Source: a virus (lineage: Duplodnaviria; Caudoviricetes). From it: a stretch of 57,458 nucleotides of DNA. Of the stretch, positions 24,801-42,484 are shown one piece after another. Position numbers and translations under genes: made by a program. The stretch is taken from positions 1-57,458 of IMG/VR virus record IMGVR_UViG_3300047311_000444; one strand, given 5' to 3'. Under the pieces are notes generated by a model. The model worked only from the letters and a program-made list of their open reading frames with translations, made no database searches and was not told the origin of the DNA. Position 1 is the stretch's first letter. The number at the start of each line of letters is the position of its first letter.

Positions 24801-24802
24801 TT

Positions 24803-25645: not shown

Positions 25646-25646
25646 T

Positions 25647-28600
25647 ATGCCCGCAACAAATTTCGATGATCTGGAGGTGCTCCCTCCGGAGTCTGACGTA
25701 GGACCGATTCAAGTCGGCTCTCTGTTGCAGAAGCCTTTTGTCCCGCCCCCGTTCACGCCGCAGGAGATCAACATCGTCGGAGGTCAAAAGCCCCCACTCA
25801 CTGGCGGCGCTCTTCTCAACAAAGGAATTGCGGCGCTTCCCCCGGACTTGCAGGACGTGCTGACGAAGCAACTCCCGCAGGTGAGCAAAGCGATTGGAAG
25901 CTCCACTGAAGCCGTTGGGAATCTCGCTGTCGGCGCGCTGTCGGACCTGGGGCAAAACATCGTTTCACCCGAAGAGGGTTATCACACGGAGAATGTCCAG
26001 ACGGCGCTCAACAACCCGATCATTCCCATGCCAGCGCGACAGGGAGAGGAGCGGCTCGTCGTCACTCCCGGCAAAGGCGTTGAGAGCGTTCGCAAACAAA
26101 TCCCAGCGCAAGACATCGAGGAGCTTCCGACGTACGCGGACGTTCGCGCGGCACCTGGAATGAAGATTCCATTGATTGACACGCCGGTTGCATCCGTCGC
26201 CCAAGGCATCGTCAAGAGCCTTCCGCAACTTGCCCTCACCGCAGCCGGTGGAGAAGTGATCGGAACTCCTGCCGCCGCTGCCGCCGTTTTTGGATCAACA
26301 CCGCAGGGCTTCGACCCCAAAGCCGCCGCGATCGCCGCTGCGCTGCCGTTCGCTGGCAAGTACAGCGGAGAGATTGCTGGAGCGATCGCCAAGCAGTTCG
26401 GTGTTGAAAGCTCGACGGCGCTCAACTGGATCAAGGGTGCGGCTGGAACCGCAGGACCGGCTGCGGGTCTTATCGCCGAACAGGAGACGGAGATCAGCAA
26501 GCTCCCGAAAGACCAGCAGCATGAAGCCCGCATAAATATGTGGGCGAACATTGCCGGACAACTCGCGCTCGGCCCCATGGGGGTTGAGTTCGAGCGTGGC
26601 GGCGCGCCGCGAGCAGAGGCAGGTCCGGAAAAGATTTCCGTCGAAGGCCGACAACTTAAACCCCGCGCTCCGGAACTTCCGGAGATCAAACCAGGAGAAT
26701 TCTATGCCCTTCACCAAGAAACAGCACAACCTTTTCGAAGCCTGCGCGAAAGGATCGGGCAAGATGTCGGTCAAGTGCCCACCGAAGAAGGTGGCGGCGC
26801 GGCTGGCGTCAGAGGGAGTGAAGAAAAGCCCAGTCCGGAGTCAGGGGCACGCGCTGGCGAAGTACGCGCAACACCTGTCGAACAGGTAACAGCATTCACC
26901 AAGGCCCTTGATGTCACTGGGCAGCGTCCGCCCAGCACAGAGGAGTCCCATGCCGCAGGAATGCAATCCAAGACGGTCGCTGATCTCGACCATTTGATTG
27001 AGGCACAGCGGCAATTGAGGGATAAGAAAACTGCGGCGAGCGATCGGGCGAAATCGGCAACCAGCCCCGAAGCGAAAATGGCGGCATTGAACGAGGGCAT
27101 GGGCGCGGCGACTAAAGGACAACTTCCACGTGAAGCGATCGAAGCGGCGACAAATACTGGAAGCGCTAAAGAGGGTGAAGGCACTCGCAACAATCTCGGA
27201 GAACGTCCGCTTGATTGGCGCAACAACCCAGAAGCAAAGGACTGGCTTCTCAAAAACGGAGCGGAACTCTGGGGCGAGAAAAGCGAGCAGTGGAAAAACT
27301 TTCAGGCAGAGGCGGCAGCGCACACTCCTGAATCGAAAGGGGGTGTTGTCAGTGAAGAAACGCAAAGGCTCCAAAAAGAAAAAGGGGTACTGAGTCCCGA
27401 AGTTCAAAATGTGATGGAGTCTGAGGCTGCGAAGGACGCTCCCCGAAACCCGAACAACTTGGAAGTCGTCCAGCGCGGCCTCGGACCAAATGCTCATTGG
27501 GCAGTGATCGACCATGGGAAGGGCGACGTTGTCGCCACTTTTGGAAGCAAGTCATTGGCCGAACAGCAATTGGCCGACATGAAGGGCCAGAAGACTATTG
27601 ATGTTGAATCCAAGGCAATGGGTGCTGGCCCCGGCGCTCAAACGATCGGTGAGGAAGGCAAGCCCGAACTCGCCCAACTCACCGACGCTCTCCAAACCAT
27701 GGCAGAGCAGGGCAAGGGAAAACCTCAACTCAAGCGCGCGTACAGTCTCGGAGAGCAGTTCCAGCAGTTGAAAGCCCCCGTGCTGAAGGGCATCACCGGA
27801 CTGAAGACCGCAGCGCAATCCGCAAAGCTCAGCCTGACTCGCCCCACGGCATGGACTGGATTCAAAGCCGCATTGGGCGAGCGTCAACTTGCGCTCAGCG
27901 AATCGACGCTGAACCTGAGAGACTTCGTCGACAAGGCAATGCGTGGAGTGCCCAACGCGCTCGATCGCGAAGCGATTTCCAATTACGTGGACAACGGCGG
28001 AGACCGGCAGAAGCTTCTCACTGCGATCGCGGAGACCGATCCCAAATACGAAGCGGGCTATCAGCGGGCGCTGAACCTCCCGCCCGAACTCCGAAACGTC
28101 GCGGAAAACATCCGGAACTATTTCGAGTCTCGGTTGCAAGACGCGATCGACGCGGGAATCCTTGAGGACGGCGTCGAGGATTACATTCACAGATTTTATG
28201 AGAAGGATTCTCCTTGGAAGTCCGGTGTCATCTCCGAGATTCGGAGTGGAGTGTTCACCGGCAAGCCTGCATTGGCAAAGCAGCGAATTTTTCAGTACGA
28301 CTACGAAGCGGAAAAAGCGGGCTACAAGGTCAACAAGGATTTCTCTCAGCGCGTTGCCGCCTACGATTACTCGCTCAACAAAGCGATCGCTGATCGAAAG
28401 TTCGTCAAAGATTTAATGCAGTGGAAAATGAGCGACGGTCGACCCGCGATCGACGTGGGAGGCCGCGCTGACAAGGTTGGCGGAGTGGGAACTGACGCAG
28501 CGTTCCTGATCAAGCCACAGTACCGCCCCCGCCTGGAGGCCAAGCCGGGGATGACGCCCGCAGAGCTTGAGCAGGTGAGATTGAACGACCGAAGCGAATA

Positions 28601-30215
28601 CGTGCCTTACGATCACCCCGCGCTTCGAAAATGGAAATGGATGACGGTTGACGCTGAGGGCTCTCCGATCATGGTCCAAGGCGACGTGCTTGTTCATAAG
28701 GATGCAATGCGGGACCCAAGGAATCCGCTCAATCAACCGATCCCGGCAGTGTTCGGAAAATCCGCCGTCCGCAATTTCAAACCATGGGGAGTTCCTGTTG
28801 GTCGCGCCGCGCTGCTGGGCAGCAGCACCGTTAAGCAAACGATGCTGGACCTTTCTGGATTCCATCCGGTTCAGATCACAATCCACGGGCTGGAACATCG
28901 AGCCAATGTCCCGCTTACTCGCTGGTCCGCCAACATCACGGGAAGGTCGTTCAAAGCGATTGATCTCAACGACCCGGTTCAACGATCGCTCGTCTCTCAC
29001 GGGCTCAACGTCGTGGATCACAGCGGCCTTGAAGCCTTCTCGGAGGGCGTCTCCGGTGGAGGCTCCTCGCTGTTTCGAAAAGTGCCGTGGTTGGGAGACA
29101 AACTCCAGACGTATCAGCATTGGCTTTTCCAGGATTACATTCCTCGCCTGAAGATGGAAATGGCGACTCATGCTCTGGAGAGAAACCGGGCTGTGTATGC
29201 CAAAGACCTCGCCTCCGGGAAACTCACAGAGGACCAGTTGCTCCATATCACCGCGAATCAGGCCAATGCCGCGTTCGGTGAGTTGAATTACGAAATGATG
29301 GGACGCAACAAGACCTTTCAGGATGGTTTGCGGCTGGCCTTCCTCGCCCCGGACTTTCTCGAAGCTCGCGGACGTTTCGTCGGCCAAGCATTGAAGGGTT
29401 ACGGTCGCGAGCAACTCACGGCGCTCACGCTGGGCGCGGCCACGCTGTACATCACCGCAAGGATGATGAATAAAATGATCAGCGGCGAATATCACTTCGA
29501 GCCCGAACACGCTTTCGATGTCATGCACAACGGTCGCGCTTATTCGATTCGAACTGTCCAGGGCGACTTGCTTCACTTGGCGTTCAATCCCCGAAGCTTC
29601 GCCTACACCCGATTGAATCCCGTCACGACGAGAACGCTGTTCGAAATCGGCACTGGGCGAGACCAATTCGGAAGACCCCGCTCCGCGCTTGATCAAGTCA
29701 AAGACTTTGCCTCAACGATTGTCCCGATCTCCATTCGTGGAGCGCTCAAGCAGCCTGAGCAAAAATGGTGGGAGGGATTCATCAACAGTCTCGGGGTGAC
29801 GGAGCGCCGCGCAACGGCATCGGACAGCGTTTACAAGCTCGCCGACGATTTCAAAAAGAAGCACGGCATTCAAGAGCCGGGTGAGTTCATTTACGATCCC
29901 GAGAAGGACCCGTATCGCGGAACCAAACTGGCCTTGATGTTCGACACTCCGCAGAGCGCAGCCCAGGAAATGAAGCTCGCCGTGGACAAGGGCGCAACCG
30001 ACTGGAAGCACATTGGAGCTTACTTCAACGAGTTCGGCAAAAAGCCCTTCACTGGCAGCAAGGCACGCGAGAAGGATTTCTGGAACACGCTGAGCCCCGA
30101 TCAGCAGAAAATCTACAAGGACGCAGTCAACGAGCGTCTTAAAATGCGGAAGAATGCCGCCGAAGCGTTCAAGATTCTTCGAGCGGAGCGGGATCAGCAG
30201 CAACAAACTCCTTGA
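25647..30215 (+). CDS. Large internal virion/ejection protein
   Basis: ~1520 aa, A/G-rich helical, C-terminal AN.AFGELNY..G...LAPDFLEAR...GRDQFGRP pattern of large polyvalent virion proteins. Confidence 0.7.
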   Translation: MPATNFDDLEVLPPESDVGPIQVGSLLQKPFVPPPFTPQEINIVGGQKPPLTGGALLNKGIAALPPDLQDVLTKQLPQVSKAIGSSTEAVGNLAVGALSDLGQNIVSPEEGYHTENVQTALNNPIIPMPARQGEERLVVTPGKGVESVRKQIPAQDIEELPTYADVRAAPGMKIPLIDTPVASVAQGIVKSLPQLALTAAGGEVIGTPAAAAAVFGSTPQGFDPKAAAIAAALPFAGKYSGEIAGAIAKQFGVESSTALNWIKGAAGTAGPAAGLIAEQETEISKLPKDQQHEARINMWANIAGQLALGPMGVEFERGGAPRAEAGPEKISVEGRQLKPRAPELPEIKPGEFYALHQETAQPFRSLRERIGQDVGQVPTEEGGGAAGVRGSEEKPSPESGARAGEVRATPVEQVTAFTKALDVTGQRPPSTEESHAAGMQSKTVADLDHLIEAQRQLRDKKTAASDRAKSATSPEAKMAALNEGMGAATKGQLPREAIEAATNTGSAKEGEGTRNNLGERPLDWRNNPEAKDWLLKNGAELWGEKSEQWKNFQAEAAAHTPESKGGVVSEETQRLQKEKGVLSPEVQNVMESEAAKDAPRNPNNLEVVQRGLGPNAHWAVIDHGKGDVVATFGSKSLAEQQLADMKGQKTIDVESKAMGAGPGAQTIGEEGKPELAQLTDALQTMAEQGKGKPQLKRAYSLGEQFQQLKAPVLKGITGLKTAAQSAKLSLTRPTAWTGFKAALGERQLALSESTLNLRDFVDKAMRGVPNALDREAISNYVDNGGDRQKLLTAIAETDPKYEAGYQRALNLPPELRNVAENIRNYFESRLQDAIDAGILEDGVEDYIHRFYEKDSPWKSGVISEIRSGVFTGKPALAKQRIFQYDYEAEKAGYKVNKDFSQRVAAYDYSLNKAIADRKFVKDLMQWKMSDGRPAIDVGGRADKVGGVGTDAAFLIKPQYRPRLEAKPGMTPAELEQVRLNDRSEYVPYDHPALRKWKWMTVDAEGSPIMVQGDVLVHKDAMRDPRNPLNQPIPAVFGKSAVRNFKPWGVPVGRAALLGSSTVKQTMLDLSGFHPVQITIHGLEHRANVPLTRWSANITGRSFKAIDLNDPVQRSLVSHGLNVVDHSGLEAFSEGVSGGGSSLFRKVPWLGDKLQTYQHWLFQDYIPRLKMEMATHALERNRAVYAKDLASGKLTEDQLLHITANQANAAFGELNYEMMGRNKTFQDGLRLAFLAPDFLEARGRFVGQALKGYGREQLTALTLGAATLYITARMMNKMISGEYHFEPEHAFDVMHNGRAYSIRTVQGDLLHLAFNPRSFAYTRLNPVTTRTLFEIGTGRDQFGRPRSALDQVKDFASTIVPISIRGALKQPEQKWWEGFINSLGVTERRATASDSVYKLADDFKKKHGIQEPGEFIYDPEKDPYRGTKLALMFDTPQSAAQEMKLAVDKGATDWKHIGAYFNEFGKKPFTGSKAREKDFWNTLSPDQQKIYKDAVNERLKMRKNAAEAFKILRAERDQQQQTP
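26704..26889 (+). CDS. Overprinted small basic protein MPFTKKQHNLFEA... (61 aa) nested in +1 frame
   Basis: GGAG 6 nt before ATG; resembles phage MPFKSKAQ-type small proteins. Confidence 0.55.
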   Translation: MPFTKKQHNLFEACAKGSGKMSVKCPPKKVAARLASEGVKKSPVRSQGHALAKYAQHLSNR

Positions 30216-30240
30216 CGGCAAGCGGCTTGTTTGTGATAAC
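30212..30240 (+). promoter_or_regulatory. Promoter-like element with CAAGC-G-GCTTG operator
   Basis: TTGACG-17-GATAAC; palindrome at 30219-30229. Confidence 0.5.
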
Positions 30241-30266
30241 ACAAGCCATGCGAACCCGCGCGCACT

Positions 30267-30557
30267 ATGATTGAGCCCAAGCAGCAATTTCTCTCTCAGT
30301 TACCGGCAGAGTCAAATTTCAGAAACGTGATCATATCCGACGTGTTTCAGAGGGCTCTGATACTGTCGTTCACTCAACTCGCCATTGAGACGATTTCTCC
30401 GGAACAACTGAAGGGGGCAAAGCGATTCGTGGAAATCCTCACCGACATCGGAACCCCGTCCGCCCCACCAAAAGACTTTCCGGACAAAAAGCTTGATCAC
30501 TCGGTATTTCATTCACCGCAAGAGCAGCCGAAAAAGACAAAGAAGAAAGCAACATAA
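30267..30557 (+). CDS. Hypothetical protein preceding scaffold
   Basis: QLKGAKRFVEIL helix; TAATG coupling to scaffold. Confidence 0.7.
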   Translation: MIEPKQQFLSQLPAESNFRNVIISDVFQRALILSFTQLAIETISPEQLKGAKRFVEILTDIGTPSAPPKDFPDKKLDHSVFHSPQEQPKKTKKKAT

Positions 30558-31855
30558 TGGCAGAAGTAGCATCACCCCCAGCCGCTCCAGCGGCAGCCCC
30601 TCCGACTCCCCCGCCGTCGTCTCCCCCGAGTGCGCCGCCAGCGGCTCCCGCTGCCGCGCCGTCCGGAGAGGGCGAAGGTCCTGGATCATTTGACAAGTTC
30701 GACACTGCCTTTGAAGACCTCGGGCAAGACACTCCCCCGCCGTCAGGGACTCCCGCCCCGGTACGCACTCCGAAGGCACCGGCGAAGCCTGCCGCCACAC
30801 CCGCGCCAGCCAAGCCAGCCGGGACGACTCCTCCGGGAGAATTCGAAGAGGTTGAGGGAATCCAGGTCCCCCGTTTTAAAAAGGACAGCGAGTTTCGGGG
30901 TTGGGGTCTCGCGGGCTATAAAAAGGCCAAGCAGTTGGAGACCGATCTCAACACTCTCCGAGCACAGCACCAGCAGATGGAGCAGGAGCACCCGAAGACC
31001 AAACAGGAGCGTGATGCCCTCGCCGCGCGCTTGGCTGACATCGAAAAGAATTTCAACGAAACGTCCGAACAGATCAAGTACCTCAATTACGAGCGCTCCA
31101 GCGAATACAAGGACAAGTACGAAACGCCCTACCGCAAAGCAGCGTCCGCTGCGTACGAAGCCGTAAAGCAGTTAACAGTGACGGAACCCGACCCGACGCA
31201 GCCGCCGAATCAGGACGGAAGTCATCCAACTCGGGAGCGTCCTGCCACGGAAGCAGACTTCGACGAAATTTATCAACTTCCCCTTGGTCCCGCCGCGAAG
31301 CTCGCGAGCAAAAAGTTCGGCCCCGAACTCGTCGGCACGATGATGCAACACTGGCACAACATCCGGACGCTGGCCAAAGACGCAACCAACGCGCTGAAGG
31401 ACTGGAAAGAAAAGGCGTCACAGCGCGAGAAGGCGGAGTCGGACCAGAAGACCATACAAGAGGGCCAGATTCAGGAAGCGTGGACGACAGTGAACAAGCG
31501 CATGTCGGAAGACCCTCGCGGCGCGGACCTGTGGGCAGAGGTGAAGGACGACAAGGAAATCAACGAAGCGATCGGGCAGGGATTTGCTCTCGCCGACCGT
31601 CGTTTCTCCAACGACTACGCAAAAATGTCACAAATGGAGAAGATCGTTCTCGATGCTTCAATCCGTCACCGGGTCGCGGCCTTTTATCGTTTACGGGTCG
31701 AAAACCAGCGGCTCAAAGCAGAGCATGCCCAGGCTCTCAAGGACCTTGCCGAACTTCGAGGTAGTGGCCCCGGAGAGCCTGGGACTCCCGGAGGCGGAGA
31801 GCAACCCGCTGGAGAGTCCAAGGGCGCAATGGCTGAGTTCGATGAGAAAATGTGA
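30557..31855 (+). CDS. Capsid scaffolding protein (putative)
   Basis: P/A-rich N-terminus, long charged coiled coils, short C-terminal helix AMAEFDEKM. Confidence 0.65.
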   Translation: MAEVASPPAAPAAAPPTPPPSSPPSAPPAAPAAAPSGEGEGPGSFDKFDTAFEDLGQDTPPPSGTPAPVRTPKAPAKPAATPAPAKPAGTTPPGEFEEVEGIQVPRFKKDSEFRGWGLAGYKKAKQLETDLNTLRAQHQQMEQEHPKTKQERDALAARLADIEKNFNETSEQIKYLNYERSSEYKDKYETPYRKAASAAYEAVKQLTVTEPDPTQPPNQDGSHPTRERPATEADFDEIYQLPLGPAAKLASKKFGPELVGTMMQHWHNIRTLAKDATNALKDWKEKASQREKAESDQKTIQEGQIQEAWTTVNKRMSEDPRGADLWAEVKDDKEINEAIGQGFALADRRFSNDYAKMSQMEKIVLDASIRHRVAAFYRLRVENQRLKAEHAQALKDLAELRGSGPGEPGTPGGGEQPAGESKGAMAEFDEKM

Positions 31856-33315
31856 GGAACTGCTGGATCACACTCGGCGCGTACGGTGACTGCTGCAACA
31901 CGCTGCCGCTGGTCCTCCACGATTTCCACCTTGGCAATCGTCCCACGATGATGATCGCTCGGGAGTTTGCTGGTCTCCTTGACGGCGTCTCCTACTGCGA
32001 GCGGCTTGTCTACGAAGGGGATTACTCCCAATCCGCAAAGGCCGCTGACGAAGCTCAGGCCAGCGGAAAGTTCGACAACATTTACCTGTGCCAGTGCTAC
32101 GGCACGACCGTTGAACGAGCAACCGACTCGTACGCGAAAGAAGCGTGGAGGCTCGTCCAGCGTCTTCACCTGTGGGATCAGTTGCCGCTGGTGTTTGATC
32201 GAAGAGACAGGGAGCGGGAGAAGAGGCAAGTTGAAGAGTTGGAGAACGATCCAAAATATCGCCGCGCAAACCCCATAGTGCTGGTTTCTCGCTCCGGGAG
32301 GTCCTCCCCATTTCACGATTGGTCTATGCTGATCCTGGCCCTTGGCTCCTTGGTGGAGGACTTCAATATCGTGGACGTGTCCGACATGCGACTCCACAGG
32401 TTTTACGACATGCTTGGATTGATGGAGAAAGCCGTTGTTCTGGTCTCCACTGACAGCGGATTACTTCACCTTGCTCAAGCGATTCCTTCGCTTCCAGTCA
32501 TTGCCCTCACGACACACTCTCCCGATTCATGGCATGGGTCTCCACGTCGGGGCAGTCATGTGTTCAATTGCCGGTACAACGAATTTAGAGAGCGCCAGAA
32601 TGAGATTCCGAACGTGATCAGAAGAATAATGTCCGGCTCAAAGATCAACCGGATTGTTCACGTCTATTCCGATTTCGATCACCGCGCTGAGGATGCAGAG
32701 TTCCGGTTCAACGTGGCGCGCCTGTCGTGGAAGCGGGAGTACGGTCTAACTGATTGGCTCCCGACTCCCGTCCACGACAAGACGCTCAACCGAAACGCAA
32801 CCGTGGTGGGAGAGAAAAAGCCTGCCCCATTCTTGAAGGATATTTTGGAACGCGGCGCGGAGATCGCAGCCCCGGACGACATCATTCTTTTTACCAACGA
32901 CGACACGAACTTTGCGCCGAACTTCTCCGTGGATTTGAAGCAGTGTATGGCAAACCATGATGCCATTTGGGGCTCCAGGATGGAACTGAATTACATCAAG
33001 TCCCCTCCCAGCCGGGAGGAAATGTCCAGAGGCTACAAGCATTGCGGCGCCGACGTGTTTGCCTTTCGCAAATCATGGTGGACAAAGCATCGCGATCGGG
33101 TCCCGGACTTTCTTCTCTCGTTCGAATGCTGGGACCTGTCGTTGAGGACCCTGATAAATATCACTGGCGGCGCGGAGGCTGAAGGGCTATGCGCTCACCA
33201 GATTCATACCTCGCATTGGCACACGGCGGAGCACCGAGAGTGTACCGGAAACCTTTACAATCGCCACTTGTGCCAAAAATTCTTTTCGGATAACCGTATG
33301 GGATGGCCAGCATGA
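31852..33315 (+). CDS. Two-domain glycosyltransferase (GT9 heptosyltransferase-like + GT-A)
   Basis: LGAYGD...LP, VSTDSGLLHLAQA (GT9); ILFTNDD, GADVFAF, WD (GT-A). Confidence 0.8.
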   Translation: MRNCWITLGAYGDCCNTLPLVLHDFHLGNRPTMMIAREFAGLLDGVSYCERLVYEGDYSQSAKAADEAQASGKFDNIYLCQCYGTTVERATDSYAKEAWRLVQRLHLWDQLPLVFDRRDREREKRQVEELENDPKYRRANPIVLVSRSGRSSPFHDWSMLILALGSLVEDFNIVDVSDMRLHRFYDMLGLMEKAVVLVSTDSGLLHLAQAIPSLPVIALTTHSPDSWHGSPRRGSHVFNCRYNEFRERQNEIPNVIRRIMSGSKINRIVHVYSDFDHRAEDAEFRFNVARLSWKREYGLTDWLPTPVHDKTLNRNATVVGEKKPAPFLKDILERGAEIAAPDDIILFTNDDTNFAPNFSVDLKQCMANHDAIWGSRMELNYIKSPPSREEMSRGYKHCGADVFAFRKSWWTKHRDRVPDFLLSFECWDLSLRTLINITGGAEAEGLCAHQIHTSHWHTAEHRECTGNLYNRHLCQKFFSDNRMGWPA

Positions 33316-33609: not shown

Positions 33610-35430
33610 ATGAAAAAGATCGCAGTGGTTTGCGCCTGCCTGTTGGCGCTGGTCAAAAGCATGGGCCAGCAGTCTCCCTACGGCACTGGCCTGATCCAAC
33701 AACCCAACGCCGCGTCCGCAAGGAATTATCTCGGGATCACAGGTGGAGGACCGGGCACAGTCACCAGTTTTTCGAGCGGCAATCTGTTTCCCCTGTTCAC
33801 GACGTTTGTTGCCACTCCAGGCACTACTCCCGCACAGTCATTCGCTCAGGTGAGTCAAAATCAAAACCTCGTCTTCGCAAGCCCGAATGGTGCGCCGGGA
33901 GTGCCCACCTTCCGCGCGCTAGTCTCCGCCGACATTCCAGCCGCGCCAAGGACTTCATTCACGAATCACTCTGACGTTGTTCCCACGACCCTGAATCCAG
34001 GCGACATTATTGCGTACAACGGAGCGGGAGCGTGGACGAATGGACCACAGGTAACAGCGGGAGGCTCCGGAACCGTAACCAGTTTCAGCGCGGGAACCCT
34101 CTCACCTCTGTTCACGACGAGCGTTGCGAATCCGACAACGACCCCAGCCCTGTCCTTCGCGCAGGTAAGCCAGAACGCCAACCTGTTTTTCGCGAGCCCT
34201 GACGGAGTGTCAGGAAATCCCTCCTTCCGAGCGATCGTTGCGGCAGACGTTCCCAGAACTCCGTTCACGAATCATTCAGACGTAGTGCCGTCAACACTCC
34301 AGCCGGGAGACCTTATGGCTTACAACGGGGCGGGCTCTTGGACAAACGGTCCTCGCGCTTCAGGAGGCGGCTCAGTTACGAGCGTGGCCCTCAGCGCTCC
34401 ACAGGCATTTTCAGTTTCCGGCTCTCCGGTGACAACGAGCGGCACGCTGACGTTTGCTCGCGCGAACGACGATAACTATCTGGGATTTGGTGTCACCAAT
34501 GCGGGCAATGTAATCACGACAAATCTTCAGGCTCAAGTGATCACAAATACCGGAACAGCAAGCGCGCCGTTCGTGTACACCGACTCTGGCGGCAAGCACA
34601 AGACCGGCATCGTTGGTCTCGGTCTGACATTTGATTCAGCGTCGGGAACACTCTCGAACTCAAATCCAAATCAGGTGAGTCTCCCTGGATTGCTTGTTCG
34701 TCCAGTGAGCGCTTTAGTCAACGGCACTCTTCAGGCGCCTACATTTCCCGATGACGACACTTACTACTTCGACGAAGAATTTGACTCAGCGATTGGAACA
34801 ACCGCTGGCCAATTCGGTAAAAACTATTGGAACGTAGTCGCAGCGGGTGGAGGAGGCGGCGCCTCACTGGGAACTAGCAACGAGCCTCCGCATTACGGAG
34901 TGGCTGTAATTTCCAGCCCGACAGGAGCAACCTCAAGCGCGAGCTTCGCGCAAACAGCGTCTTCGCTTTTACTCCCCTACCCGCAACTCGGGTTGAACCC
35001 CAACTGGCTTTTCCACGCTGTCTTTCGTATTGCAACCACGAATCAAGGCTCGATCTATCGCATCGGATTATCTGATACGAGTTTCTCCGCCTTCACGTCC
35101 TCGATCTCTCCCAGTAATTGCGTGATGCTGCGATGGGACAAGAATAAGAACGACCCGAACAATTTTGTTTTCGAAGCATGCAGCAACTCTATCCGGAGCA
35201 CCGCAAACAGCACTGTCAGGCCGAATACGAACAACTGGGTCAAGCTCACGATGATGTCTACGAATGCCGGGACAGTGCTCTGCTCAGTCAATGGAGAAAG
35301 TTGGGTCACTCTGACAACTATCCCGGTCGCTTCAATGTGCATCGTGGCAACTACGGCAGTCACCAACGCGGTGCAAGAGTTTCTTTGGCTCGACCGACTG
35401 TCCTTCATGGCATCCTCGACGGGAAGATGA
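33610..35430 (+). CDS. Fibre-like repeat protein with N-terminal signal peptide-like segment
   Basis: MKKIAVVCACLLALVKSMG; GTVTS and ASPNG..G.PTFRAL..ADIP fibre motifs; lectin-like beta C-terminus. Confidence 0.65.
   Translation: MKKIAVVCACLLALVKSMGQQSPYGTGLIQQPNAASARNYLGITGGGPGTVTSFSSGNLFPLFTTFVATPGTTPAQSFAQVSQNQNLVFASPNGAPGVPTFRALVSADIPAAPRTSFTNHSDVVPTTLNPGDIIAYNGAGAWTNGPQVTAGGSGTVTSFSAGTLSPLFTTSVANPTTTPALSFAQVSQNANLFFASPDGVSGNPSFRAIVAADVPRTPFTNHSDVVPSTLQPGDLMAYNGAGSWTNGPRASGGGSVTSVALSAPQAFSVSGSPVTTSGTLTFARANDDNYLGFGVTNAGNVITTNLQAQVITNTGTASAPFVYTDSGGKHKTGIVGLGLTFDSASGTLSNSNPNQVSLPGLLVRPVSALVNGTLQAPTFPDDDTYYFDEEFDSAIGTTAGQFGKNYWNVVAAGGGGGASLGTSNEPPHYGVAVISSPTGATSSASFAQTASSLLLPYPQLGLNPNWLFHAVFRIATTNQGSIYRIGLSDTSFSAFTSSISPSNCVMLRWDKNKNDPNNFVFEACSNSIRSTANSTVRPNTNNWVKLTMMSTNAGTVLCSVNGESWVTLTTIPVASMCIVATTAVTNAVQEFLWLDRLSFMASSTGR
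33754..34353 (+). repeat. Two ~100-aa tandem repeats in fibre gene (33754-34047, 34069-34353)
   Basis: GTVTSFS.G.L.PLFTT...FTNHSDVVP.TL.PGD..AYNGAG.WTNGP twice. Confidence 0.9.
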
Positions 35431-36137
35431 AATACATCACTGGGACCGGGTATTTCGCGAAGCCCAATTCCGGAGCGGAGTGGTTTTACAGGCTGTGGTG
35501 GGACAACATTCACAAGTACTCCAAACCGGAACGGGTCTTCATTGTCGGCATGGGCGGTTGTTCAATCCCGGCTGCTCCTGGGAGTTGGGTTGAGATCGAC
35601 GGGGACCTTGGGCACGTCCACGACATCCTGAATCGTATCAAGCCGTACCCGTATTGCGCGTGTGGGGTTGCCCTCTGCATTCTCGCCCTGATCGCCTACT
35701 CCAACGAATGCGATTTTGTTTACCACGAACAGGACGCTCTCGCGTTTGGTCCCTACGTTGAGAAAATGTATGAGGAGATCGGTGACGGGCAGTTGATCAT
35801 GGGGAAGCAGCGAGGCCAGCCTGTGGCAAACAGCATCATGCTTGTTAAGCATTCATTCCTGCTTGAGTTCGTTACGTCTTGGCTTACGAGTGAACCGGAG
35901 ACCAGTCCGGACAACATCGGGGAGCACAAGTTTGGGAGGTGGGCAGAGCGAAACAACAAGCTCCGGTTTTACTCGTTCGGTTACGATCGGGACCGTCCCT
36001 TCAACGCAGACGATCCTGTATGGCATGCCCAGAAGTTCAACAAGGAGGAATTGGAGCTATTAAAAAGCAAGGGGCTTGTTGACTTCGACTCGATTCCTGA
36101 TAGCATTTCCAGGTTTTCGAACTGCCCCGAATTATGA
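35427..36137 (+). CDS. Glycosyltransferase-like protein (GT-A)
   Basis: DFVYHEQDALAFG (ExD); ATGA coupling. Confidence 0.55.
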   Translation: MKYITGTGYFAKPNSGAEWFYRLWWDNIHKYSKPERVFIVGMGGCSIPAAPGSWVEIDGDLGHVHDILNRIKPYPYCACGVALCILALIAYSNECDFVYHEQDALAFGPYVEKMYEEIGDGQLIMGKQRGQPVANSIMLVKHSFLLEFVTSWLTSEPETSPDNIGEHKFGRWAERNNKLRFYSFGYDRDRPFNADDPVWHAQKFNKEELELLKSKGLVDFDSIPDSISRFSNCPEL

Positions 36138-36907
36138 AACTTCACATTGTCACGATCGTCCTGGACGGCATGCCAACTCTCCCGGCGCTCTTCTTCAACT
36201 TCAATGCGCTCAAGGTCGACTGGCATTGGACCATCATTGAGGGAGCCGCAGCGAATACATCGTGCACTTACTGGTGCAACAAACAAGCCCCTCGTTTAAG
36301 CGAGGATGGCACGCATGAGTTTTTGCAGATGATCAGCAGTCACCCTCGCGTCAGGATCGTTAGTACGGTGTTCTGGCCCGGAGGCAAGGTTCAGATGTTC
36401 AATCACGCGCTCGACCAGATCAAAGAGGAGGGCGTGCTGCTTCAGTGTGACGCCGACGAGGTTTGGCAGGCGTGGCAACTCGATAGGCTTGTAGACGCCT
36501 TTCGCTCGGACCCAAGCATTGGCTCTGCTCAGTTCGTTTGCCGGTACTTTCTCGGGGTGAACATCCTGTCAGCAACTCCCAACACGTACGGGAACAAGCC
36601 CGATGAATGGCTCAGAGCATGGCGTTTCACTCCTGGGGATAAGTTCCTTTCACATGAGCCCCCCAATCTCCACCAGAGACAGCCGGGGCATCGGATCAAC
36701 CCGGAGTGGTTGGCGATGGAGGGGCTCATGTTCGACCATTACGCTTACGCCTTCCCCAATCAGGTCCAGTACAAGGAGCAATTCTACGGTTACAGGAATG
36801 CCTTCAAGGGCTGGCAGTCGCTCCAGCAGAACAAACGCTGGCCAGTGAAGCTCAAGGAGTTTTTCGGGTGGGTGGACGATCGGGCGACGGCGGAACCACT
36901 GAAGTGA
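36134..36907 (+). CDS. Glycosyltransferase family 2-like protein
   Basis: TIVLDG, IIEG, SEDGT.EFL, LLQCDADEVW, FDHYAY. Confidence 0.8.
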   Translation: MKLHIVTIVLDGMPTLPALFFNFNALKVDWHWTIIEGAAANTSCTYWCNKQAPRLSEDGTHEFLQMISSHPRVRIVSTVFWPGGKVQMFNHALDQIKEEGVLLQCDADEVWQAWQLDRLVDAFRSDPSIGSAQFVCRYFLGVNILSATPNTYGNKPDEWLRAWRFTPGDKFLSHEPPNLHQRQPGHRINPEWLAMEGLMFDHYAYAFPNQVQYKEQFYGYRNAFKGWQSLQQNKRWPVKLKEFFGWVDDRATAEPLK

Positions 36908-37210
36908 TCATTTCTGCGGCTCGCGACCTTCGAGGACCAAATGGTGATAGTGGCACAGCCAAACGACTTCGAGGGGCTTCGTGTAATCAATGTGGTGCGG
37001 CTCAGTCTTTGGATTGCCGCAGGCTTCGCATATTCCCCGTAGAATCTTGCCCCTTTTGAGATAAACGTGCAGGTACGATCGAGCGTTTGAGCGGAGACGT
37101 TGCTCTGTCGTAAGTGGATGATTTGGCCTCCAGTTACGCATATATTTTGCGTGGCAGTTCCAGCAGTTTCTCTGTCCCGGACGTGCCTCATTTCCGCAAG
37201 CGCATGTCAT
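36908..37210 (-). CDS. HNH-type/Zn-finger endonuclease-like protein
   Basis: CEACG...PHHIDYTKPLEVVWLCHYHH; inserted antisense among late genes. Confidence 0.75.
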   Translation of the reverse strand: MTCACGNEARPGQRNCWNCHAKYMRNWRPNHPLTTEQRLRSNARSYLHVYLKRGKILRGICEACGNPKTEPHHIDYTKPLEVVWLCHYHHLVLEGREPQK

Positions 37211-37253
37211 CACTCCACGCAAACACCTTCTTTTCCGATTGTCGAGAAAGTTG

Positions 37254-37419
37254 TTGACTCCATCCGTAAAAATACGGATTGTCACGTCGAGATGTAAAAG
37301 GGTTGCTGGATTCTTCTCTCCAGCAGGCAGGACGGCGCTGCCCCAAAAATCGGCCTGTGTAGGAAACGACCCCGCGTAACCGCTCGCGCTTTGGCGCGGC
37401 AAACACAGACCGAACAGTT
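37254..37419 (+). promoter_or_regulatory. Capsid promoter and structured 5' leader
   Basis: TTGACT, palindrome ATCCGTA-AAAA-TACGGAT (37262-37279), hairpins TGCTGGA/TCCAGCA, GGCAG/CTGCC, TCGG.CTGTGT/ACACAG.CCGA. Confidence 0.45.
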
Positions 37420-38751
37420 ATGGCAACCTGGAATTGCGCCGCATTTTTCGACTTTCTCTTTGATCAAAGTCCCCACTTCGACAAGGACATCCTCAAGGAT
37501 TGGTTTCCCACAGATGACGCCTGGATCGGCCACGTCGCGACCATCCCGTGGGATTCTTTCACCGGCACAACGCATGTGTACGATCACGTGCATGTTGGCG
37601 CCCCCGACCTGAGCCAAGCCTGGGACACCTTCGATACCCAGAGCACGCAATGCGTGACGAACGCTTGCACGCCGAAAGCAATCTCGGTGGGCTGGGGATC
37701 GACGCGGAAGACCTACAGCCGCGAGCGCAAGCGCTACGAGACGAATGTTCTCTGCTTCGACCAGATGAACACGCGCGCCAAGGCCAAGCAGCAACTCGCG
37801 GAGATCATCCGGGGCATCAAGGACCTCACGAAGATGATCTGGAGCGATTACATTCGCCGCAACTCCCTGATGCAGTCGCCCACGCTTTACATCGCTGGCG
37901 CGGCTCGCAACACCGTGGCGATCACTCCTGCGATGTTCACGGGCGGCATGGCGACGATCGTCCTCGGCAGCGACGGGCTGTTGCCGACGAGCACGCTGAC
38001 GATCCAGTATCTCCAGCGGTTTTACGAACTGCTCCAGGGCAACGGTTACTTCAAGTCGAAGTACGTTCCCAATGGCGTGTTCAAACTGATCACCGACCCG
38101 ATCTCGACGCAGCAGTTGATCGAGATGAACCCGGCGCTCGTCTCCAACTTCAAGTTCACCGACTTCACCCGAGGCGGCGAACTGTTCAAGTACGGCATGA
38201 GCAAGGGCATCGGAAACTTCGGCATCGCCTGGGATTTGTTTCCGGCGCGCTTCTATCCCAAAAATGACGGACACGGAACGCTCGTCCGTGTGTGGCCCTA
38301 TCTGAATCAGGCCGCAACGATCGGTATCAAGCCGGTCTTCAATCAAAAGTGGGTGGACGCGCCGATTCAATACAGCCCGATCTGGCACCCGGAAGCGATG
38401 AAGCGCGCCGTGCCGGAACTCACTCCGGTTCATCCGGAAATGCCCTTCCTCACCCGCGACCTGGGCGGCAAGTGGAACTTCACGGGACCCGACAGCGACA
38501 CGATCGTTGTCACGGACCCGACGACCGGCCAAACCTGCGTGATCGACAATAAGGCGCGCAATCAGGGGCTCTGGTGGGCGGACTTCGAATCCGGTTTCAA
38601 GTTCGAGTATCCGGAATGGACCGCTCCGATCCTCCACCTGCGCGAACCCGGCTGCGTCGTGGACAATCCGGTCTGCACCACGGCACCGGCTTACGTCGTC
38701 CAGGACTACTCGGACGTGAATCCGGTCTGCACCGAACTGGGACCGTTCTAA
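37420..38751 (+). CDS. Major capsid protein (putative)
   Basis: 443 aa, strong high-expression codon bias, own promoter/leader and 3' hairpin, downstream of scaffold. Confidence 0.75.
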   Translation: MATWNCAAFFDFLFDQSPHFDKDILKDWFPTDDAWIGHVATIPWDSFTGTTHVYDHVHVGAPDLSQAWDTFDTQSTQCVTNACTPKAISVGWGSTRKTYSRERKRYETNVLCFDQMNTRAKAKQQLAEIIRGIKDLTKMIWSDYIRRNSLMQSPTLYIAGAARNTVAITPAMFTGGMATIVLGSDGLLPTSTLTIQYLQRFYELLQGNGYFKSKYVPNGVFKLITDPISTQQLIEMNPALVSNFKFTDFTRGGELFKYGMSKGIGNFGIAWDLFPARFYPKNDGHGTLVRVWPYLNQAATIGIKPVFNQKWVDAPIQYSPIWHPEAMKRAVPELTPVHPEMPFLTRDLGGKWNFTGPDSDTIVVTDPTTGQTCVIDNKARNQGLWWADFESGFKFEYPEWTAPILHLREPGCVVDNPVCTTAPAYVVQDYSDVNPVCTELGPF

Positions 38752-38815: not shown

Positions 38816-39193
38816 ATGGCGAGATCATACATGCAACCACGGACGCGGCGGCGCATGGCCGCTGCGGAAAATCCGATGGGTGAGGGCCAGAACAGTGAAC
38901 CGACCGGCGAGACAATGGTGGACCATCCTATTGACCCCGCTCCCTCGGGAACTCCTGCTCCCGCCGATGCTCCTTCGATCTTCGTCAAAAAGGAAATGCT
39001 TGGTGGCAAGGACTGGAAGGCGGGCGAGGAGATCGTTTTCAAAATCAAGGCGATCGACCCGGAAACTGGTGAGGCTGAGCTTTACTACGCTCCCGAAAAA
39101 GCCGGTGACGATCACATGGAAGAGCCCGCCGACGCAATGAGCGCAATGGACAACAAATTTCCCGCCGATCAAGGCGGGGCTGGAGGTTACTGA
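38816..39193 (+). CDS. Acidic hypothetical protein
   Basis: KAGEEIVFKIKAIDPETGE beta core with disordered ends. Confidence 0.7.
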   Translation: MARSYMQPRTRRRMAAAENPMGEGQNSEPTGETMVDHPIDPAPSGTPAPADAPSIFVKKEMLGGKDWKAGEEIVFKIKAIDPETGEAELYYAPEKAGDDHMEEPADAMSAMDNKFPADQGGAGGY

Positions 39194-39196: not shown

Positions 39197-39583
39197 ATGG
39201 CTATCAACTGCGATCTGAACGCTCTCCTCGCCCTCTCAAAGTGCCTGGAGGAAACTTGCACGGCGGAAGAGGAACGCCTCGCCATTGACCTCTATGCTCG
39301 TATCGTCGAGCTTCAGGCGTCGGGTGGCGCTGACTACCGGAATGCAATGACGCTTCTGGCCAACGACGCGAAGCAGTTCCAGGTCTTGTTCAAAAATCAG
39401 CGTCAGGCGATCGCGCTGGCGATTGATCTCCAGAACGTCGTTGCCGTTGCTCCTTCATTTTCGACGGACATCAACGCTCTCAAGGCCGGGGCGAAGTGTT
39501 TCGAGTGCTGGGGAAGCGAGTTCAAAAAGAACGTGCTCCTATTCCTCAAGTGCCAACTCAATTCGCTCGGCAAGCCTGAATAA
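39197..39583 (+). CDS. Cys-module protein 1 (putative capsid decoration)
   Basis: C/TD.NAL...(S/A)KC..; ends FLKCQL. Confidence 0.65.
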   Translation: MAINCDLNALLALSKCLEETCTAEEERLAIDLYARIVELQASGGADYRNAMTLLANDAKQFQVLFKNQRQAIALAIDLQNVVAVAPSFSTDINALKAGAKCFECWGSEFKKNVLLFLKCQLNSLGKPE

Positions 39584-39585
39584 GC

Positions 39586-39708
39586 ATGGCGTGCGACGTT
39601 CAATCTGCGGCAGACGGAGCGGCTTGCTTCGAGTGTCTGTCGGAGAAGGAACTCTTGGTGCTGAAACTTTATCTGCTGTGCCAATGGCTGGCAGTTTTGC
39701 AACCGTGA
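39586..39708 (+). CDS. Cys-module protein 2, 40 aa MACDVQSAADGAACFECLSEKELLVLKLYLLCQWLAVLQP (not in ORF track)
   Basis: Fills the gap exactly; homologous to its neighbours. Confidence 0.75.
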   Translation: MACDVQSAADGAACFECLSEKELLVLKLYLLCQWLAVLQP

Positions 39709-39709
39709 T

Positions 39710-39934
39710 ATGCCAATCTCCTGCACACCTGAAGACCTCGCCGCAGCCGCCAAGTGTTTTTCCTGCCTGGATACTCAGTCCATGCTCGCGATCCAGACGT
39801 ACCTGCTCGCGGTGATCGCTGGCGGCTCGACCGACCCCGGAGTCCTCGCAGCGCAGGCCAAGGCGTTCCAGGGGCTCAACGGCAGGCAACTTGAAGTCCA
39901 GAGCTTTCTACTCTGTCAGATCGTTAATAAATGA
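39710..39934 (+). CDS. Cys-module protein 3 (two modules)
   Basis: SCTPEDLAAAAKCFSCL...YLL; TDPGVLAAQAKAF...FLLCQI. Confidence 0.75.
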   Translation: MPISCTPEDLAAAAKCFSCLDTQSMLAIQTYLLAVIAGGSTDPGVLAAQAKAFQGLNGRQLEVQSFLLCQIVNK

Positions 39935-41808
39935 TCTCATGCAGCCCAACCTCTTTGAATCAGCAAGCGGCTTGCTTGGAATGCTTAGACGATAAGACGC
40001 TGGCAGGTGTCCGGACTTACTTAATGTGTCAGTGGGCAAATGCGGGAGGAGGTCCGCCTCCCGGACCATCAACTCCGACCAATCTGCTGATTTCCAACAG
40101 CACCACAAATGGAAACATCATCCTGAACTGGACCGCTGGAGGACCTGCTCCGACGACTTACGAGGTTTGGGTGAGCATCAACGGCGGGGCTTACGCGCTG
40201 TTGAGCACGGTGGGCGGAGGAGTCACGACCTACACCGATACCAATGCAATGGGGGCTTCGGACCAGTGGTACTACGAAGTCCGTGCGTGCGATGGGGCAA
40301 CCTGCTCGCCGTTCACCGACCCGGCTGGAATCTTCAACGGATTCACGCACACCGTTAACACCGGACTCACTGATTACACGTTCCCATTTTTGCAATTCGT
40401 GTTCGGAGATTTCTTCGTCCAGAATCAGGCAGCGATGACAACGGTGTCGGTGCCGAAACTAAGGAAATGCACCGGGCTATTCGTCGTGAATGCCATGCCG
40501 GTGTTGACGAGTCTGGTGACGACCAGTCTTCAAACATGCACGATTTTTGCGGCCAACCTTAATACGGTGTTAACCTCAATCAGCGTGCCCGCCTTCACAG
40601 CGAACTCCTTGACCGGATTCTTCTTTGGTGATTGTCCCGCATTGCAGTTCTTGTCTGCCCCAGCATTGACAACCGTGGTTGGTGATTTCGACGGGAGAAA
40701 CAACGGAGCCATGTCGAGTATTGCTGTCCCGCTTCTGGCCACAGTATCCGGAGACATTTTCTGCCGATTCGCTTCCTCCCTCTCCTCTGTGGATTTTTCG
40801 GACCTCACCTCGGTCACCAACATCAACTTCGAATCCTCCGGGGGTTTCGCTTGTTCGTTTCCATCACTCACCACCGTAAGCGGCAGCATGGAATTCACCG
40901 GAAGTTCGATCAGTTCCCTCGATGCGAACTCTCTCACTTCAATTGGAGTGGAACTGAATCTTACTTCGTGCGGCAACCTTATGACGCTTTCGATGACGAG
41001 CCTCACCACGGTTGGGGTTGATATACTGATCGACTGCAACCTGCTCACCACTGCCACACTCACGTCGCTGCAAACTGTTTCTTCGGGAACCAACGCAGTG
41101 CCGACCCAGTTCCAGATCACTGCACCGAACCTGACTTCATTGAACCTGTCGAGCCTCACAAGTATCGGACTGGCCAGCAGCAATGCCAGTTTTGGATTAA
41201 CACTCAGCGTGGCATCCCTTGTAACGGTGAGCCTTCCCGCTCTTAATTCAGTAGCGGGAGCAACGTCAATACGTTCAGGCATTGGCCCCGTAAATTTTTC
41301 TGCCCCTGCGTTGACCACAACGGACGGCGATATAGATTTTTCAACGAACACGGTGATTGCCTCGCTTACTCTCACTGCATACCAGACCAACGGGGAACTT
41401 TTCACCCTCTCGGGCTGTACTGCTATCACGTCGCTGTCACTGCCCAGCCTCGTCTCAGTGGTTGACACATTGCGGTTCGACGGTTGCACTGCTCTGACGA
41501 GCGTCAGTTGTCCTTCTCTCACGACGATCTCTAACATCGGGCTCAATCCATTTGGATCAGCGAACTGCCCGCTGCTCACCAGTGCCAACTTTCCTGTTCT
41601 GGTCTGTGCGGATGGTCTCGTTTACGATCTTGCCGGTTGTGCGTTGGCTGCCGCATCGGTAAATCAGATGCTTCACCGTGGAGTTGTGAGCGGGACTACC
41701 ACCGGAACCTACAATCTCAACGGTGGAACAAACGCCGCTCCGTCCGGCGCAGGTGTCGCGGACAAAGCCACACTGATCGGGCTGGGCAACACGGTAAACA
41801 CGAACTGA
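39931..41808 (+). CDS. Cys-module + FN3 + leucine-rich (L-domain/BspA-like) repeat protein
   Basis: SCSPTSLNQQAACLECL...YLMCQW; PTNL..ILNW..YEVW..YYEVRA (FN3); many L.S.S.P.LT.V.G repeats. Confidence 0.75.
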   Translation: MISCSPTSLNQQAACLECLDDKTLAGVRTYLMCQWANAGGGPPPGPSTPTNLLISNSTTNGNIILNWTAGGPAPTTYEVWVSINGGAYALLSTVGGGVTTYTDTNAMGASDQWYYEVRACDGATCSPFTDPAGIFNGFTHTVNTGLTDYTFPFLQFVFGDFFVQNQAAMTTVSVPKLRKCTGLFVVNAMPVLTSLVTTSLQTCTIFAANLNTVLTSISVPAFTANSLTGFFFGDCPALQFLSAPALTTVVGDFDGRNNGAMSSIAVPLLATVSGDIFCRFASSLSSVDFSDLTSVTNINFESSGGFACSFPSLTTVSGSMEFTGSSISSLDANSLTSIGVELNLTSCGNLMTLSMTSLTTVGVDILIDCNLLTTATLTSLQTVSSGTNAVPTQFQITAPNLTSLNLSSLTSIGLASSNASFGLTLSVASLVTVSLPALNSVAGATSIRSGIGPVNFSAPALTTTDGDIDFSTNTVIASLTLTAYQTNGELFTLSGCTAITSLSLPSLVSVVDTLRFDGCTALTSVSCPSLTTISNIGLNPFGSANCPLLTSANFPVLVCADGLVYDLAGCALAAASVNQMLHRGVVSGTTTGTYNLNGGTNAAPSGAGVADKATLIGLGNTVNTN

Positions 41809-41809: not shown

Positions 41810-42484
41810 ATGAAACGCACCGCACCATTCCTCCTCGTCGTGCTCTGCATGGCTGCATTGGCAGCGCACAAGAAAGTCCAGTCTCCCAAGGATGCGGAGC
41901 AGTCGTCTACTGCTGGCGCCGTCATGACGAACAGGACGGTCGCTCAGTCCTCGATCTCCAAGGCCCCGCCGTCCCCGCTGTCGTTCATCGTTCTGCCTCC
42001 GCCCCGGACAAATCTTGTCACTCATAAACTCTTCGCGTGGGACGAGGACCCGGACTTCCAACCGCTGGTGATGTTCTACACGATTTACATGGGCACCAAT
42101 GCGGGGGTTTACATTTGGTCTGACACGACTACGAATCTCACCTACGATTTCGCGCGCACCAATTGGGCGGAGCGAATCGCAAGACACTTCGTCACGGTGT
42201 CAGCGACGGACGAGTTCATGCAGGAGACGGACGTATCCAACGAGATTCACTTTCCAGCGTTCGACGCCGATCACGTGAGGATCACCTGGACTGCCAACTG
42301 GCCGATCTGCACCCTCTGGTATGAATATGAGGCGCAAGGGACTCCGGGAATGGGCTACCAACTGGCAGTGCTCCACTACACGAACGAGTTTGACGAGTTC
42401 ATTGACAAGTCCCTGCCTGCGAAGTTTTACTATTTGGACAAGCCTGATATTCTAACAATCACCTTGTTCAATCCCAACCCCTGA
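41810..42484 (+). CDS. Secreted FN3-like protein
   Basis: Signal peptide; FAWD...YTIYMGTNAGVY...FVTVSA...SNEI. Confidence 0.65.
   Translation: MKRTAPFLLVVLCMAALAAHKKVQSPKDAEQSSTAGAVMTNRTVAQSSISKAPPSPLSFIVLPPPRTNLVTHKLFAWDEDPDFQPLVMFYTIYMGTNAGVYIWSDTTTNLTYDFARTNWAERIARHFVTVSATDEFMQETDVSNEIHFPAFDADHVRITWTANWPICTLWYEYEAQGTPGMGYQLAVLHYTNEFDEFIDKSLPAKFYYLDKPDILTITLFNPNP

Follow-up and report, generated by a model that had tools for sequence, protein, structure and literature searches.

A cysteine-patterned helical hairpin module encoded behind the capsid gene of uncultured phages: a candidate virion anchor for interchangeable adhesins

Introduction

Which role can be assigned to a short, cysteine-bearing module that is repeated in four consecutive genes downstream of the capsid gene of a tailed phage, and that in the last of these genes precedes a large adhesin-like protein? 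The question is raised by the IMG/VR record IMGVR_UViG_3300047311_000444 (Duplodnaviria; Caudoviricetes), a linear sequence of 57,458 bp with a CheckV completeness estimate of 96%, which was analysed over its whole length and is hereafter called the window. Its genes at 39197, 39586, 39710 and 39931, referred to as A, B, C and D, had been proposed from the sequence letters (the original prediction) to encode a hetero-oligomeric helical bundle docked to the capsid, in which bare modules would act as adaptors and fused modules would display interchangeable adhesins.

In this study we examined the module as a repeat, as a predicted fold and as a family, together with the cargo carried behind it and the genes that surround it. 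Our analyses describe a domain of ~37 amino acids (aa) that is predicted to form a helical hairpin, bears two covarying pairs of cysteines and stands in front of exchangeable binding domains. We interpret it as a hairpin anchor, stapled by its cysteines, through which interchangeable adhesins are displayed on the virion, with the head as the probable site; to this reading, taken as a whole, we assign a probability of about one half.

Results

Four adjoining genes carry copies of one module

All four genes lie on the + strand, and an alignment of seven candidate units resolves them into copies of a module of ~37 aa, distributed 3/1/2/1 over A, B, C and D. Protein A (39197-39583, 128 aa) is free of cargo and consists of three hairpin modules, located by alignment at residues 2-37, 46-83 and 87-124 (39200-39307, 39332-39445 and 39455-39568). 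Protein B (39586-39708, 40 aa) is a single stand-alone module (residues 1-36) with all four cysteines of the pattern, and protein C (39710-39934, 74 aa) holds two modules, at residues 2-37 and 39-73 (39713-39820 and 39824-39928), of which the first contains Cys1-3 and only the second Cys4. Protein D (39931-41808, 625 aa) starts with one module, placed by both alignment and a hidden Markov model (HMM) at residues 1-37 (39931-40041) and again complete in its four cysteines. It continues with a cargo part (40042-41808) made up of a Gly/Pro linker, a beta-rich stretch resembling a fibronectin type III (FN3) domain (~residues 50-137), leucine-rich repeats (LRRs) of the BspA type and a conserved C-terminal tail. 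The stop codon of A is followed after 2 nt by the ATG of B and that of B after 1 nt by the ATG of C, while the ATG of D overlaps the stop codon of C (ATGA); because start and stop codons are 1-2 nt apart or overlapping, A-D are probably translated as one coupled block.

An HMM of the module was trained on the copies A3, B, C1 and D1 only and run against the 1294 six-frame open reading frames (ORFs) of at least 25 aa in the record. It picked up the untrained copies C2 (i-E 1.4e-5) and A1 (i-E 7.5e-3) and nothing else in the window, the best unrelated ORF standing at E = 1. Similarly, a tblastn search of the record with C returned the N-terminus of D (E 5.7e-7) and B (E 1.6e-3). Alignment, HMM and tblastn thus agree on the common module that had been claimed for the four adjoining genes, and these scores exclude chance as the source of the repeat. 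The middle copy of A, A2, has no cysteines and was missed by the four-copy HMM, yet it still forms a third helix-loop-helix in the AlphaFold2 model of A presented below.

The family consensus of the module reads S-C-D-P-x-x-L-A-x-x-A-K-C-F-x-C-L-(7)-V-Q-T-Y-L-L-C-Q-I-A. The consensus of the original prediction, with its fixed cysteines, describes the four strong copies well and does not extend to the family, where the cysteines are optional. The arrangement of B is also present in a separate record (L004), another genome (G004) has a stand-alone module gene of 41 aa, and three-module proteins of 109-115 aa found elsewhere show the cysteine pattern of B and C combined.

An uncatalogued domain with numerous relatives

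No match to the module was found in the Pfam, PHROGs and NCBIfam model libraries, and its profile had no match among PDB sequences except for one at chance level (E 0.64). An ESM Atlas search with A returned nothing, as did tblastn searches of GenBank phages with the capsid protein and with a three-module protein; a literature search, which could not proceed by name since the module is nameless, found no paper on it. When structures were compared, the model of A had zero matches in the PDB at E<=10 with Foldseek and a best E of at least 3.2 in BFVD, and VIA-align, run over 48,161 chains, reached no more than Z 4.3, over 40 residues (one hairpin), and retrieved generic hairpins only. These single-hairpin neighbours are generic dimerisation hairpins, at Z 3-4.3. 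By all these searches the ~37-aa module is an uncatalogued domain in every library consulted, in line with the earlier remark that it belonged to no described family.

The module is nevertheless not confined to this phage. A word-seeded search with the module profile, in which 8000 candidates were scored, identified 154 proteins at E<=0.01, and every name given to them by their sources was 'hypothetical protein'. An exhaustive HMMER search of 1.84 billion cluster representatives retrieved 1527 at E<=1e-3, 408 at E<=1e-10 and 4 at E<=1e-30. So far the family is known only from uncultured phages of roughly 52-58 kb.

Architecture and cysteine content were counted in 257 inspected proteins. The first module begins by residue 10 in 244 of them. 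Copy number is one in 24 proteins, two in 147, three in 20, four in 31 and five in 35, and the length remaining after the last module is at most 15 aa in 88 proteins, 16-60 aa in 48, 61-150 aa in 21 and more than 150 aa in 100. Single-module proteins usually show a poly-Gly linker followed by a short conserved tail of ~45 residues. We also considered modules 3-5 of the five-module proteins as an orthologue of A, an idea that was dropped, as the A profile fits any three consecutive modules in varying register.

Predicted fold of the module

From a 16-sequence alignment of A-like proteins, AlphaFold2 predicts A with a mean predicted local distance difference test score (pLDDT) of 88 and a predicted template modelling score (pTM) of 0.69. 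The model comprises six helices (residues 7-17/24-41, 51-61/66-84 and 92-103/107-123) that make up three helix-loop-helix units, one per module, in agreement with the helical nature that had been anticipated. According to the model, one module is a short helix, a turn bearing the CxxC motif and a longer helix. Cys1 is found two residues before the short helix and Cys4 ~six residues before the end of the long one, and, judging from the secondary-structure string, the two would stand in register in an antiparallel hairpin. A complex prediction of A, B, C and D(1-45), run without controls and with D scored, gave 0.04 against a mark of 0.32 and counts neither way.

Two covarying cysteine pairs

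The cysteines of the module are spaced C-x10-C-x2-C-x13/14-C and differ markedly in their occupancy, which over 657 modules is 0.45 for Cys1, 0.85 for Cys2, 0.80 for Cys3 and 0.41 for Cys4. The inner two occur together: both are present in 517 modules and neither in 94, with Cys2 alone in 42 and Cys3 alone in 4. The outer two are balanced per protein and not per module. The number of Cys1 equals the number of Cys4 in 231 of the 257 proteins, where 2000 shuffles averaged 89 and never exceeded 115; the kinship of the sequences inflates such statistics, but subfamilies sharing no more than 24-40% identity show the pattern again. Among multi-module proteins, Cys1 is located in the first module in 163/232 and Cys4 in the last module in 176/232. 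Middle modules have Cys1 in 16/168 cases and Cys4 in 17/168, these positions being mostly Thr and Ala, in the linker ...YLLAVIAGGSTDP....

The individual subfamilies are conserved accordingly at their own cysteine positions. In the A family all six cysteines stay invariant across 16 homologues, the most distant at 24% identity; C5, C16, C19 and C69 are at least 90% conserved in a 44-sequence alignment of the two-module (C-type) family; and among 22 sequences of the single-module (D-type) family C4, C15 and C33 are invariant and C18 is at least 90% conserved, with a Gly-rich linker coming next.

Our reading of these patterns is that of two putative stapling pairs, an inner one formed by Cys2 and Cys3 at the turn and an outer one formed by Cys1 and Cys4. 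The outer pair may either close the array of its own chain or connect a chain's end to the beginning of the following chain, and the covariation fits both. As to the chemistry of the staples, we infer disulfides or shared metal sites. We rejected a single Zn(Cys)4 site built from Cys1-4 of one module, given that the model separates Cys1 from Cys2 by the full length of an 11-residue helix.

Exchangeable cargo behind the module

The cargo of D had been described as FN3 plus LRR. The LRR part is confirmed by Pfam, with two LRR_5 matches (E 4e-7 and 2.9e-8; 30.4 and 34.1 bits vs a gathering cut-off of 27.7), whereas the FN3 part is not significant there: no fn3 match appears at E<=1 within residues 40-144, where only weak beta-sandwich families are found (E 0.024-0.27). 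Significant fn3 matches do occur in relatives, at the same place behind the modules.

To catalogue the cargo more widely, 117 long members (53 at E<=1e-3 and 64 at E<=1e-4) were scanned against Pfam. Domains were recognised in 29 of them, all of binding type, and the other 88 were without any. Laminin_G_3 was counted 11 times, fn3 11 times, LRR-type domains 7 times, immunoglobulin (Ig)-type domains 3 times (He_PIG included) and K1-lyase_C twice; no enzyme domains were detected in the 117 proteins scanned. Exchange can be followed most closely in L004, whose capsid protein is 100% identical to that of the window and which encodes a D variant of 570 aa (P0075). Residues 1-362 of the two proteins are nearly identical and residues 363-575 have been replaced, with indels. 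Furthermore, G002 and G004 encode the LRR part in a gene of its own, which immediately follows that of a two-module protein. The diversity of domains in relatives, the LRR swap at an identical capsid protein and the splitting off of the LRR part uphold the interchangeable cargo put forward in the original prediction, as does, for its distinction between adaptors and fused forms, the fact that bare-module and cargo-bearing proteins occur side by side.

All LRR cargo proteins, fused or separate, share a ~45-aa end of the form ...GGTNxAPSGxGxxDKxxLIxxGxTVxTN. In D it is the C-terminal tail (41656-41805, + strand; GGTNAAPSG...TVNTN), and it also ends the separate LRR proteins of G002 and G004. The loci concerned also include 8468-9454 and 9744-10580 of contig L006 and a reverse-strand LRR gene of L012. 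The separate LRR proteins start with MITPDFIGQxYKDTxxGxxWRANS and the module proteins before them end with CENxEGxGDPT, a matching pair that may mark the two sides of the junction in a split gene.

The capsid gene and the order of its neighbours

The gene upstream of the block (37420-38751, + strand) codes for the major capsid protein. Its product has no sequence-level match in Pfam, PHROGs or PDB, and nothing was found when Phage_capsid_3 and Phage_capsid_4 were searched directly in the record. An AlphaFold2 model built from a 40-sequence alignment (pLDDT 73, pTM 0.75) contains a helix at 119-151 and a hairpin at 92-107, corresponding to the long spine helix and the E-loop hairpin of the HK97 fold. 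Foldseek found 266 PDB matches to this model at E<=1e-3, headed by the N4 capsid 9e99_A (E 5.3e-11, TM 0.51/0.57), and the 32 listed of these 266 are all phage capsid or virion reconstructions. In addition, some of the Atlas clusters that resemble the protein carry Phage_capsid_3/4. Because of the fold match and the Atlas look-alikes, the product is confirmed, at the level of its predicted structure, as an HK97-fold capsid protein, nearest to the N4-type coat. The module genes thus lie just downstream of a capsid gene, as had been stated, with one further gene between.

This intervening gene (38816-39193, + strand) encodes a small acidic protein of 125 aa with 0 cysteines and no Pfam or NCBIfam match, which is a candidate decoration protein or docking partner. 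Look-alikes occupy the same place in seven relatives (G001-G005, L024 and L025). The order of capsid gene and then module genes was found in 11 of 11 contigs showing both, namely the window, L004, G001-G007, L014 and L025. G001-G007 are IMG/VR genomes 52-58 kb long, of which five have terminal repeats, and L025 is a 3.2-kb JGI contig; L014 is a 54.9-kb contig binned with a Candidatus Binatia metagenome-assembled genome, the binning being a weak hint at the host. On L024, a contig of 1 kb, the acidic-protein gene directly precedes a five-module gene. The capsid-module synteny is kept at 34-48% capsid-protein identity. None of the contigs examined, which do not cover most of those encoding 4-5-module proteins, placed the module in another genomic setting. 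For five-module proteins the searches for loci of P0005 and P0001 in IMG/VR and of P0008 in GTDB genomes returned none, and their context is known from two short JGI contigs only.

As an observation on the capsid family itself, C6 and C78 are invariant in its 40 sequences, and C83, C112, C419 and C437 are conserved in at least 90%. Six kept cysteines are unusual for HK97-fold coats; they would fit a cysteine-linked shell or bonds to the module proteins. The surroundings of the gene also vary. A 164-aa Cys/His-rich ORF without a Pfam match lies between a glycosyltransferase-like gene and the capsid gene of the window (36908-37402, - strand), and L008 has a different inserted gene (7353-7877) between the capsid and acidic-protein genes. 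Both look like mobile insertions beside the capsid gene.

Discussion

Under the reading we favour, one to five tandem helix-loop-helix hairpins would anchor, from the N-terminus, a family of proteins on the surface of the phage virion. The Cys2-Cys3 staple would sit at the turn, Cys1 of the first module would pair with Cys4 of the last, and a flexible Gly/Pro linker would lead to exchangeable binding domains (LRR, FN3, laminin G (LamG) or Ig) or to nothing. Each phage would have a set of bare anchors, of the three-module A type and the two-module C type, together with at least one cargo-bearing anchor; in the phage studied here A, B and C would be the bare anchors and D the anchor with an LRR adhesin. 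These anchors are proposed to bind the capsid surface or a head-proximal structure, alone or with the acidic protein. The head is placed first because of the strict linkage to the capsid gene, so that this location derives only from the gene order of capsid, acidic protein and module genes. Virion presence, the docking site and contacts among A, B, C and D are what we infer, and a hetero-oligomer of A-D is no more than a possibility.

Several observations weigh against this reading. The genomic contexts seen all belong to one capsid-protein lineage, so common descent, and not function, may lie behind the gene order. A search of the window for a thiol oxidase or a thioredoxin-like gene revealed none, which implies that disulfides would form after release or that the sites bind metal. 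Both Cys1 and Cys4 are absent from 53 of the 257 proteins, so the putative Cys1-Cys4 staple must be dispensable. Moreover, K1-lyase_C, found among the cargo, is a tailspike domain; fast exchange of distal cargo is equally typical of tail receptor-binding proteins and of head decorations; and further fibre-like genes of the window encode, at 18826, a collagen-like protein of 258 aa and, at 33610, one of 606 aa.

The alternative that survives best, realistic though rather unlikely in our judgement, is that the modules anchor fibres of the tail or neck, that is, receptor-binding proteins, the bare modules being adaptors for a branched fibre base on the model of phages with several tailspikes on one adaptor. 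It finds support in the exchange of the distal LRR cassette between phages with identical capsid proteins, in the presence of the tailspike C-terminal domain K1-lyase_C in 2 of 117 relatives, and in the succession of a module protein and a separate LRR protein in G002 and G004, a split typical of adaptor/fibre pairs; fibre-like genes also follow the module genes in G004, G005 and L014, as judged by eye from N-terminal motifs. The nature of the cargo argues in the other direction. The domains carried are mostly of monomeric kinds (FN3, Ig, LamG and LRR), and no trimeric-fibre Pfam family was recognised among the cargo. The module genes, besides, are always linked to the capsid gene, while those that may encode tail fibres in the window are located elsewhere (18826, 33610), and the lack of a sequence or fold match to a solved fibre anchor counts as weak evidence on the same side.

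A quite improbable alternative treats the hairpin array as a rigid stalk or oligomerisation domain without any docking role, A, B and C being separate small structural or regulatory proteins of common ancestry. The per-chain balance of Cys1 and Cys4 in 231/257 proteins fits self-closing chains of this sort, and so do the generic dimerisation hairpins that are the structural neighbours of a single hairpin (Z 3-4.3). It leaves unexplained, however, the extreme N-terminal position of the module (244/257), the maintenance of bare-module genes beside cargo-bearing ones in every genome, and the fusion or splitting of module pieces between genomes. That these are non-virion proteins, for example host-directed or intracellular Cys-rich adaptors expressed late, agrees with a module lacking any annotated relative but deserves very little credence, given genes inside a + strand block with capsid and fibre-like genes, adhesin-type cargo, module proteins that, where read, start directly with the module and show no signal-peptide-like stretch, and a capsid synteny kept at 34-48% capsid-protein identity.

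The preferred reading, a stapled virion anchor, admits an extension that we regard as unlikely, in which the hairpins of separate chains would align as a continuous array on the capsid, Cys4 of one chain being bonded to Cys1 of the next. In such a stitched array the Cys4-Cys1 bond would replace the GGSTDP peptide linker of multi-module chains, and neighbouring hairpins would have a metal or a disulfide in common between their CxxC turns. A-D would then be covalently joined in a plug-and-socket scaffold by which any adhesin could be bolted to an HK97-type head.

The combination of a conserved anchor and an exchangeable adhesin on the phage particle is a known principle. In pb10 of T5, a small alpha-helical domain at the N-terminus binds the capsid and is joined by a Pro-rich linker to an Ig domain (PMC5292684). 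The likeness to D, with an N-terminal helical anchor, a linker and an exposed binding domain, the anchor conserved and the displayed part variable, is one of architecture only. The pb10 anchor is a single five-helix domain and not a tandem repeat, and it is cysteine-free, the word 'cysteine' occurring 0 times in the source (PMC5292684); the family described here, in contrast, has several paralogous anchors per genome, 1-5 repeats and cargo of up to ~650 aa. Nor is pb10 among the 50 VIA-align matches listed for the model of A, and Foldseek against the PDB gave 0 matches. T4 Hoc is a surface adhesin with a capsid-binding domain and a string of variable Ig-like domains (PMC5292684). Its anchor is C-terminal, behind the Ig domains, whereas the module is N-terminal in 244/257 proteins, and Hoc is not known to have such a repeat or cysteine pattern.

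A closer parallel for the cysteines is offered by Agrobacterium phage Milano, for whose particles disulfide networks are documented. The N-terminal cysteines of its linking proteins LP1 and LP2 are disulfide-bonded to a minor capsid protein, and LP1 has a C-terminal Ig domain (PMC10491603). The likeness would lie in paralogous small capsid-surface proteins whose N-terminal cysteines form covalent links, one paralogue bearing an outward Ig-type domain in Milano, and bonded cysteines in the Milano capsid protein find a counterpart in the six conserved cysteines of the capsid family here. The bonds of Milano, to a separate minor capsid protein, were seen by cryo-EM, whereas those of the present proteins are putative and their anchor is a hairpin repeat, and no homology to LP1/LP2 was detected by a PDB-wide profile search.

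Outside phages, twin-CX9C CHCH domains are disulfide-stapled alpha-hairpins. Plant alpha-hairpinins are helix-loop-helix peptides with four cysteines, whose Cys1-Cys4 and Cys2-Cys3 pairs fit the covariation observed here. The motifs of these two groups, CX3C...CX3C and CX9C...CX9C, differ from the C-x10-C-x2-C-x13/14-C of the module, and the outer pair proposed here spans the whole multi-hairpin array. The proteins in question are also those of phages, with putative disulfides, and not secreted peptides or mitochondrial proteins. What is new in the present case is an undescribed domain with an unusual cysteine grammar across a multi-hairpin array.

The uncatalogued domain occurs in at least about 1500 sequence clusters, and its grammar comprises an N-terminal position, 1-5 hairpins, two covarying cysteine pairs, a flexible linker and exchangeable binding domains. 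Should it prove to be a capsid or virion anchor, it would open the adhesin repertoire of an entire environmental phage lineage to annotation and provide a further example beside Milano of cysteine-based cross-linking in phage particles as well as a very small (37-aa) candidate tag for phage-head display; a stitched array, if true, would represent a new self-assembling covalent display system. The covariation of the cysteines makes the bonding pattern directly testable.

Other genes of the window and its relatives

Variable proteins of a second class, whose N-terminus is hydrophobic like that of a signal peptide and whose cargo is diverse, are encoded near the module genes, at 41810-42484 and 33610-35430 of the window, at 2265-4205 and 4533-6746 of L005, and at 10586-11146, 11347-12072 and 12018-12851 of L006. 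The 606-aa protein of the window and the 737-aa protein of L005 share a repeated, fibre-like N-terminal region of the form '...ARxYLGI...GTVTSFS', which may represent another type of N-terminal tag belonging to this variable zone.

Upstream of these genes, four consecutive proteins encoded at 24177-31855 (207, 282, 1526 and 432 aa) have 0 cysteines in 2447 residues, whereas Cys makes up 1-4% of the majority of the phage's other proteins. As their sequences are Ala/Gln/Pro-rich or resemble coiled coils, the four may be internal, ejected or scaffolding proteins. Glycosyltransferase-like genes are present within the structural block, just upstream of the capsid gene, at 31852-33315 and 36134-36907; their matches are weak (Glyco_transf_9 at E 1.2e-4; glycosyltransferase family 2 (GT2) at E 6e-4 and below the cut-off), and glycosylation of the virion is a possibility.

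Searches with Pfam and PHROGs over the whole record revealed neither a large terminase nor a portal. The product of 18826-19602 (258 aa) shows a short collagen-like G-x-y run close to the N-terminus (GVEGPDGTDGKDGTNG) and matches PHROG 31840, of unassigned function (E 6.8e-15); it is a candidate tail fibre distinct from D. At the left end of the window, 87-782 codes for a DUF1804-like protein (E 2.2e-4, below the cut-off), and 4684-5190 (- strand) is a gene resembling tyrosine or dual-specificity phosphatases (Y_phosphatase2, E 3.5e-11).

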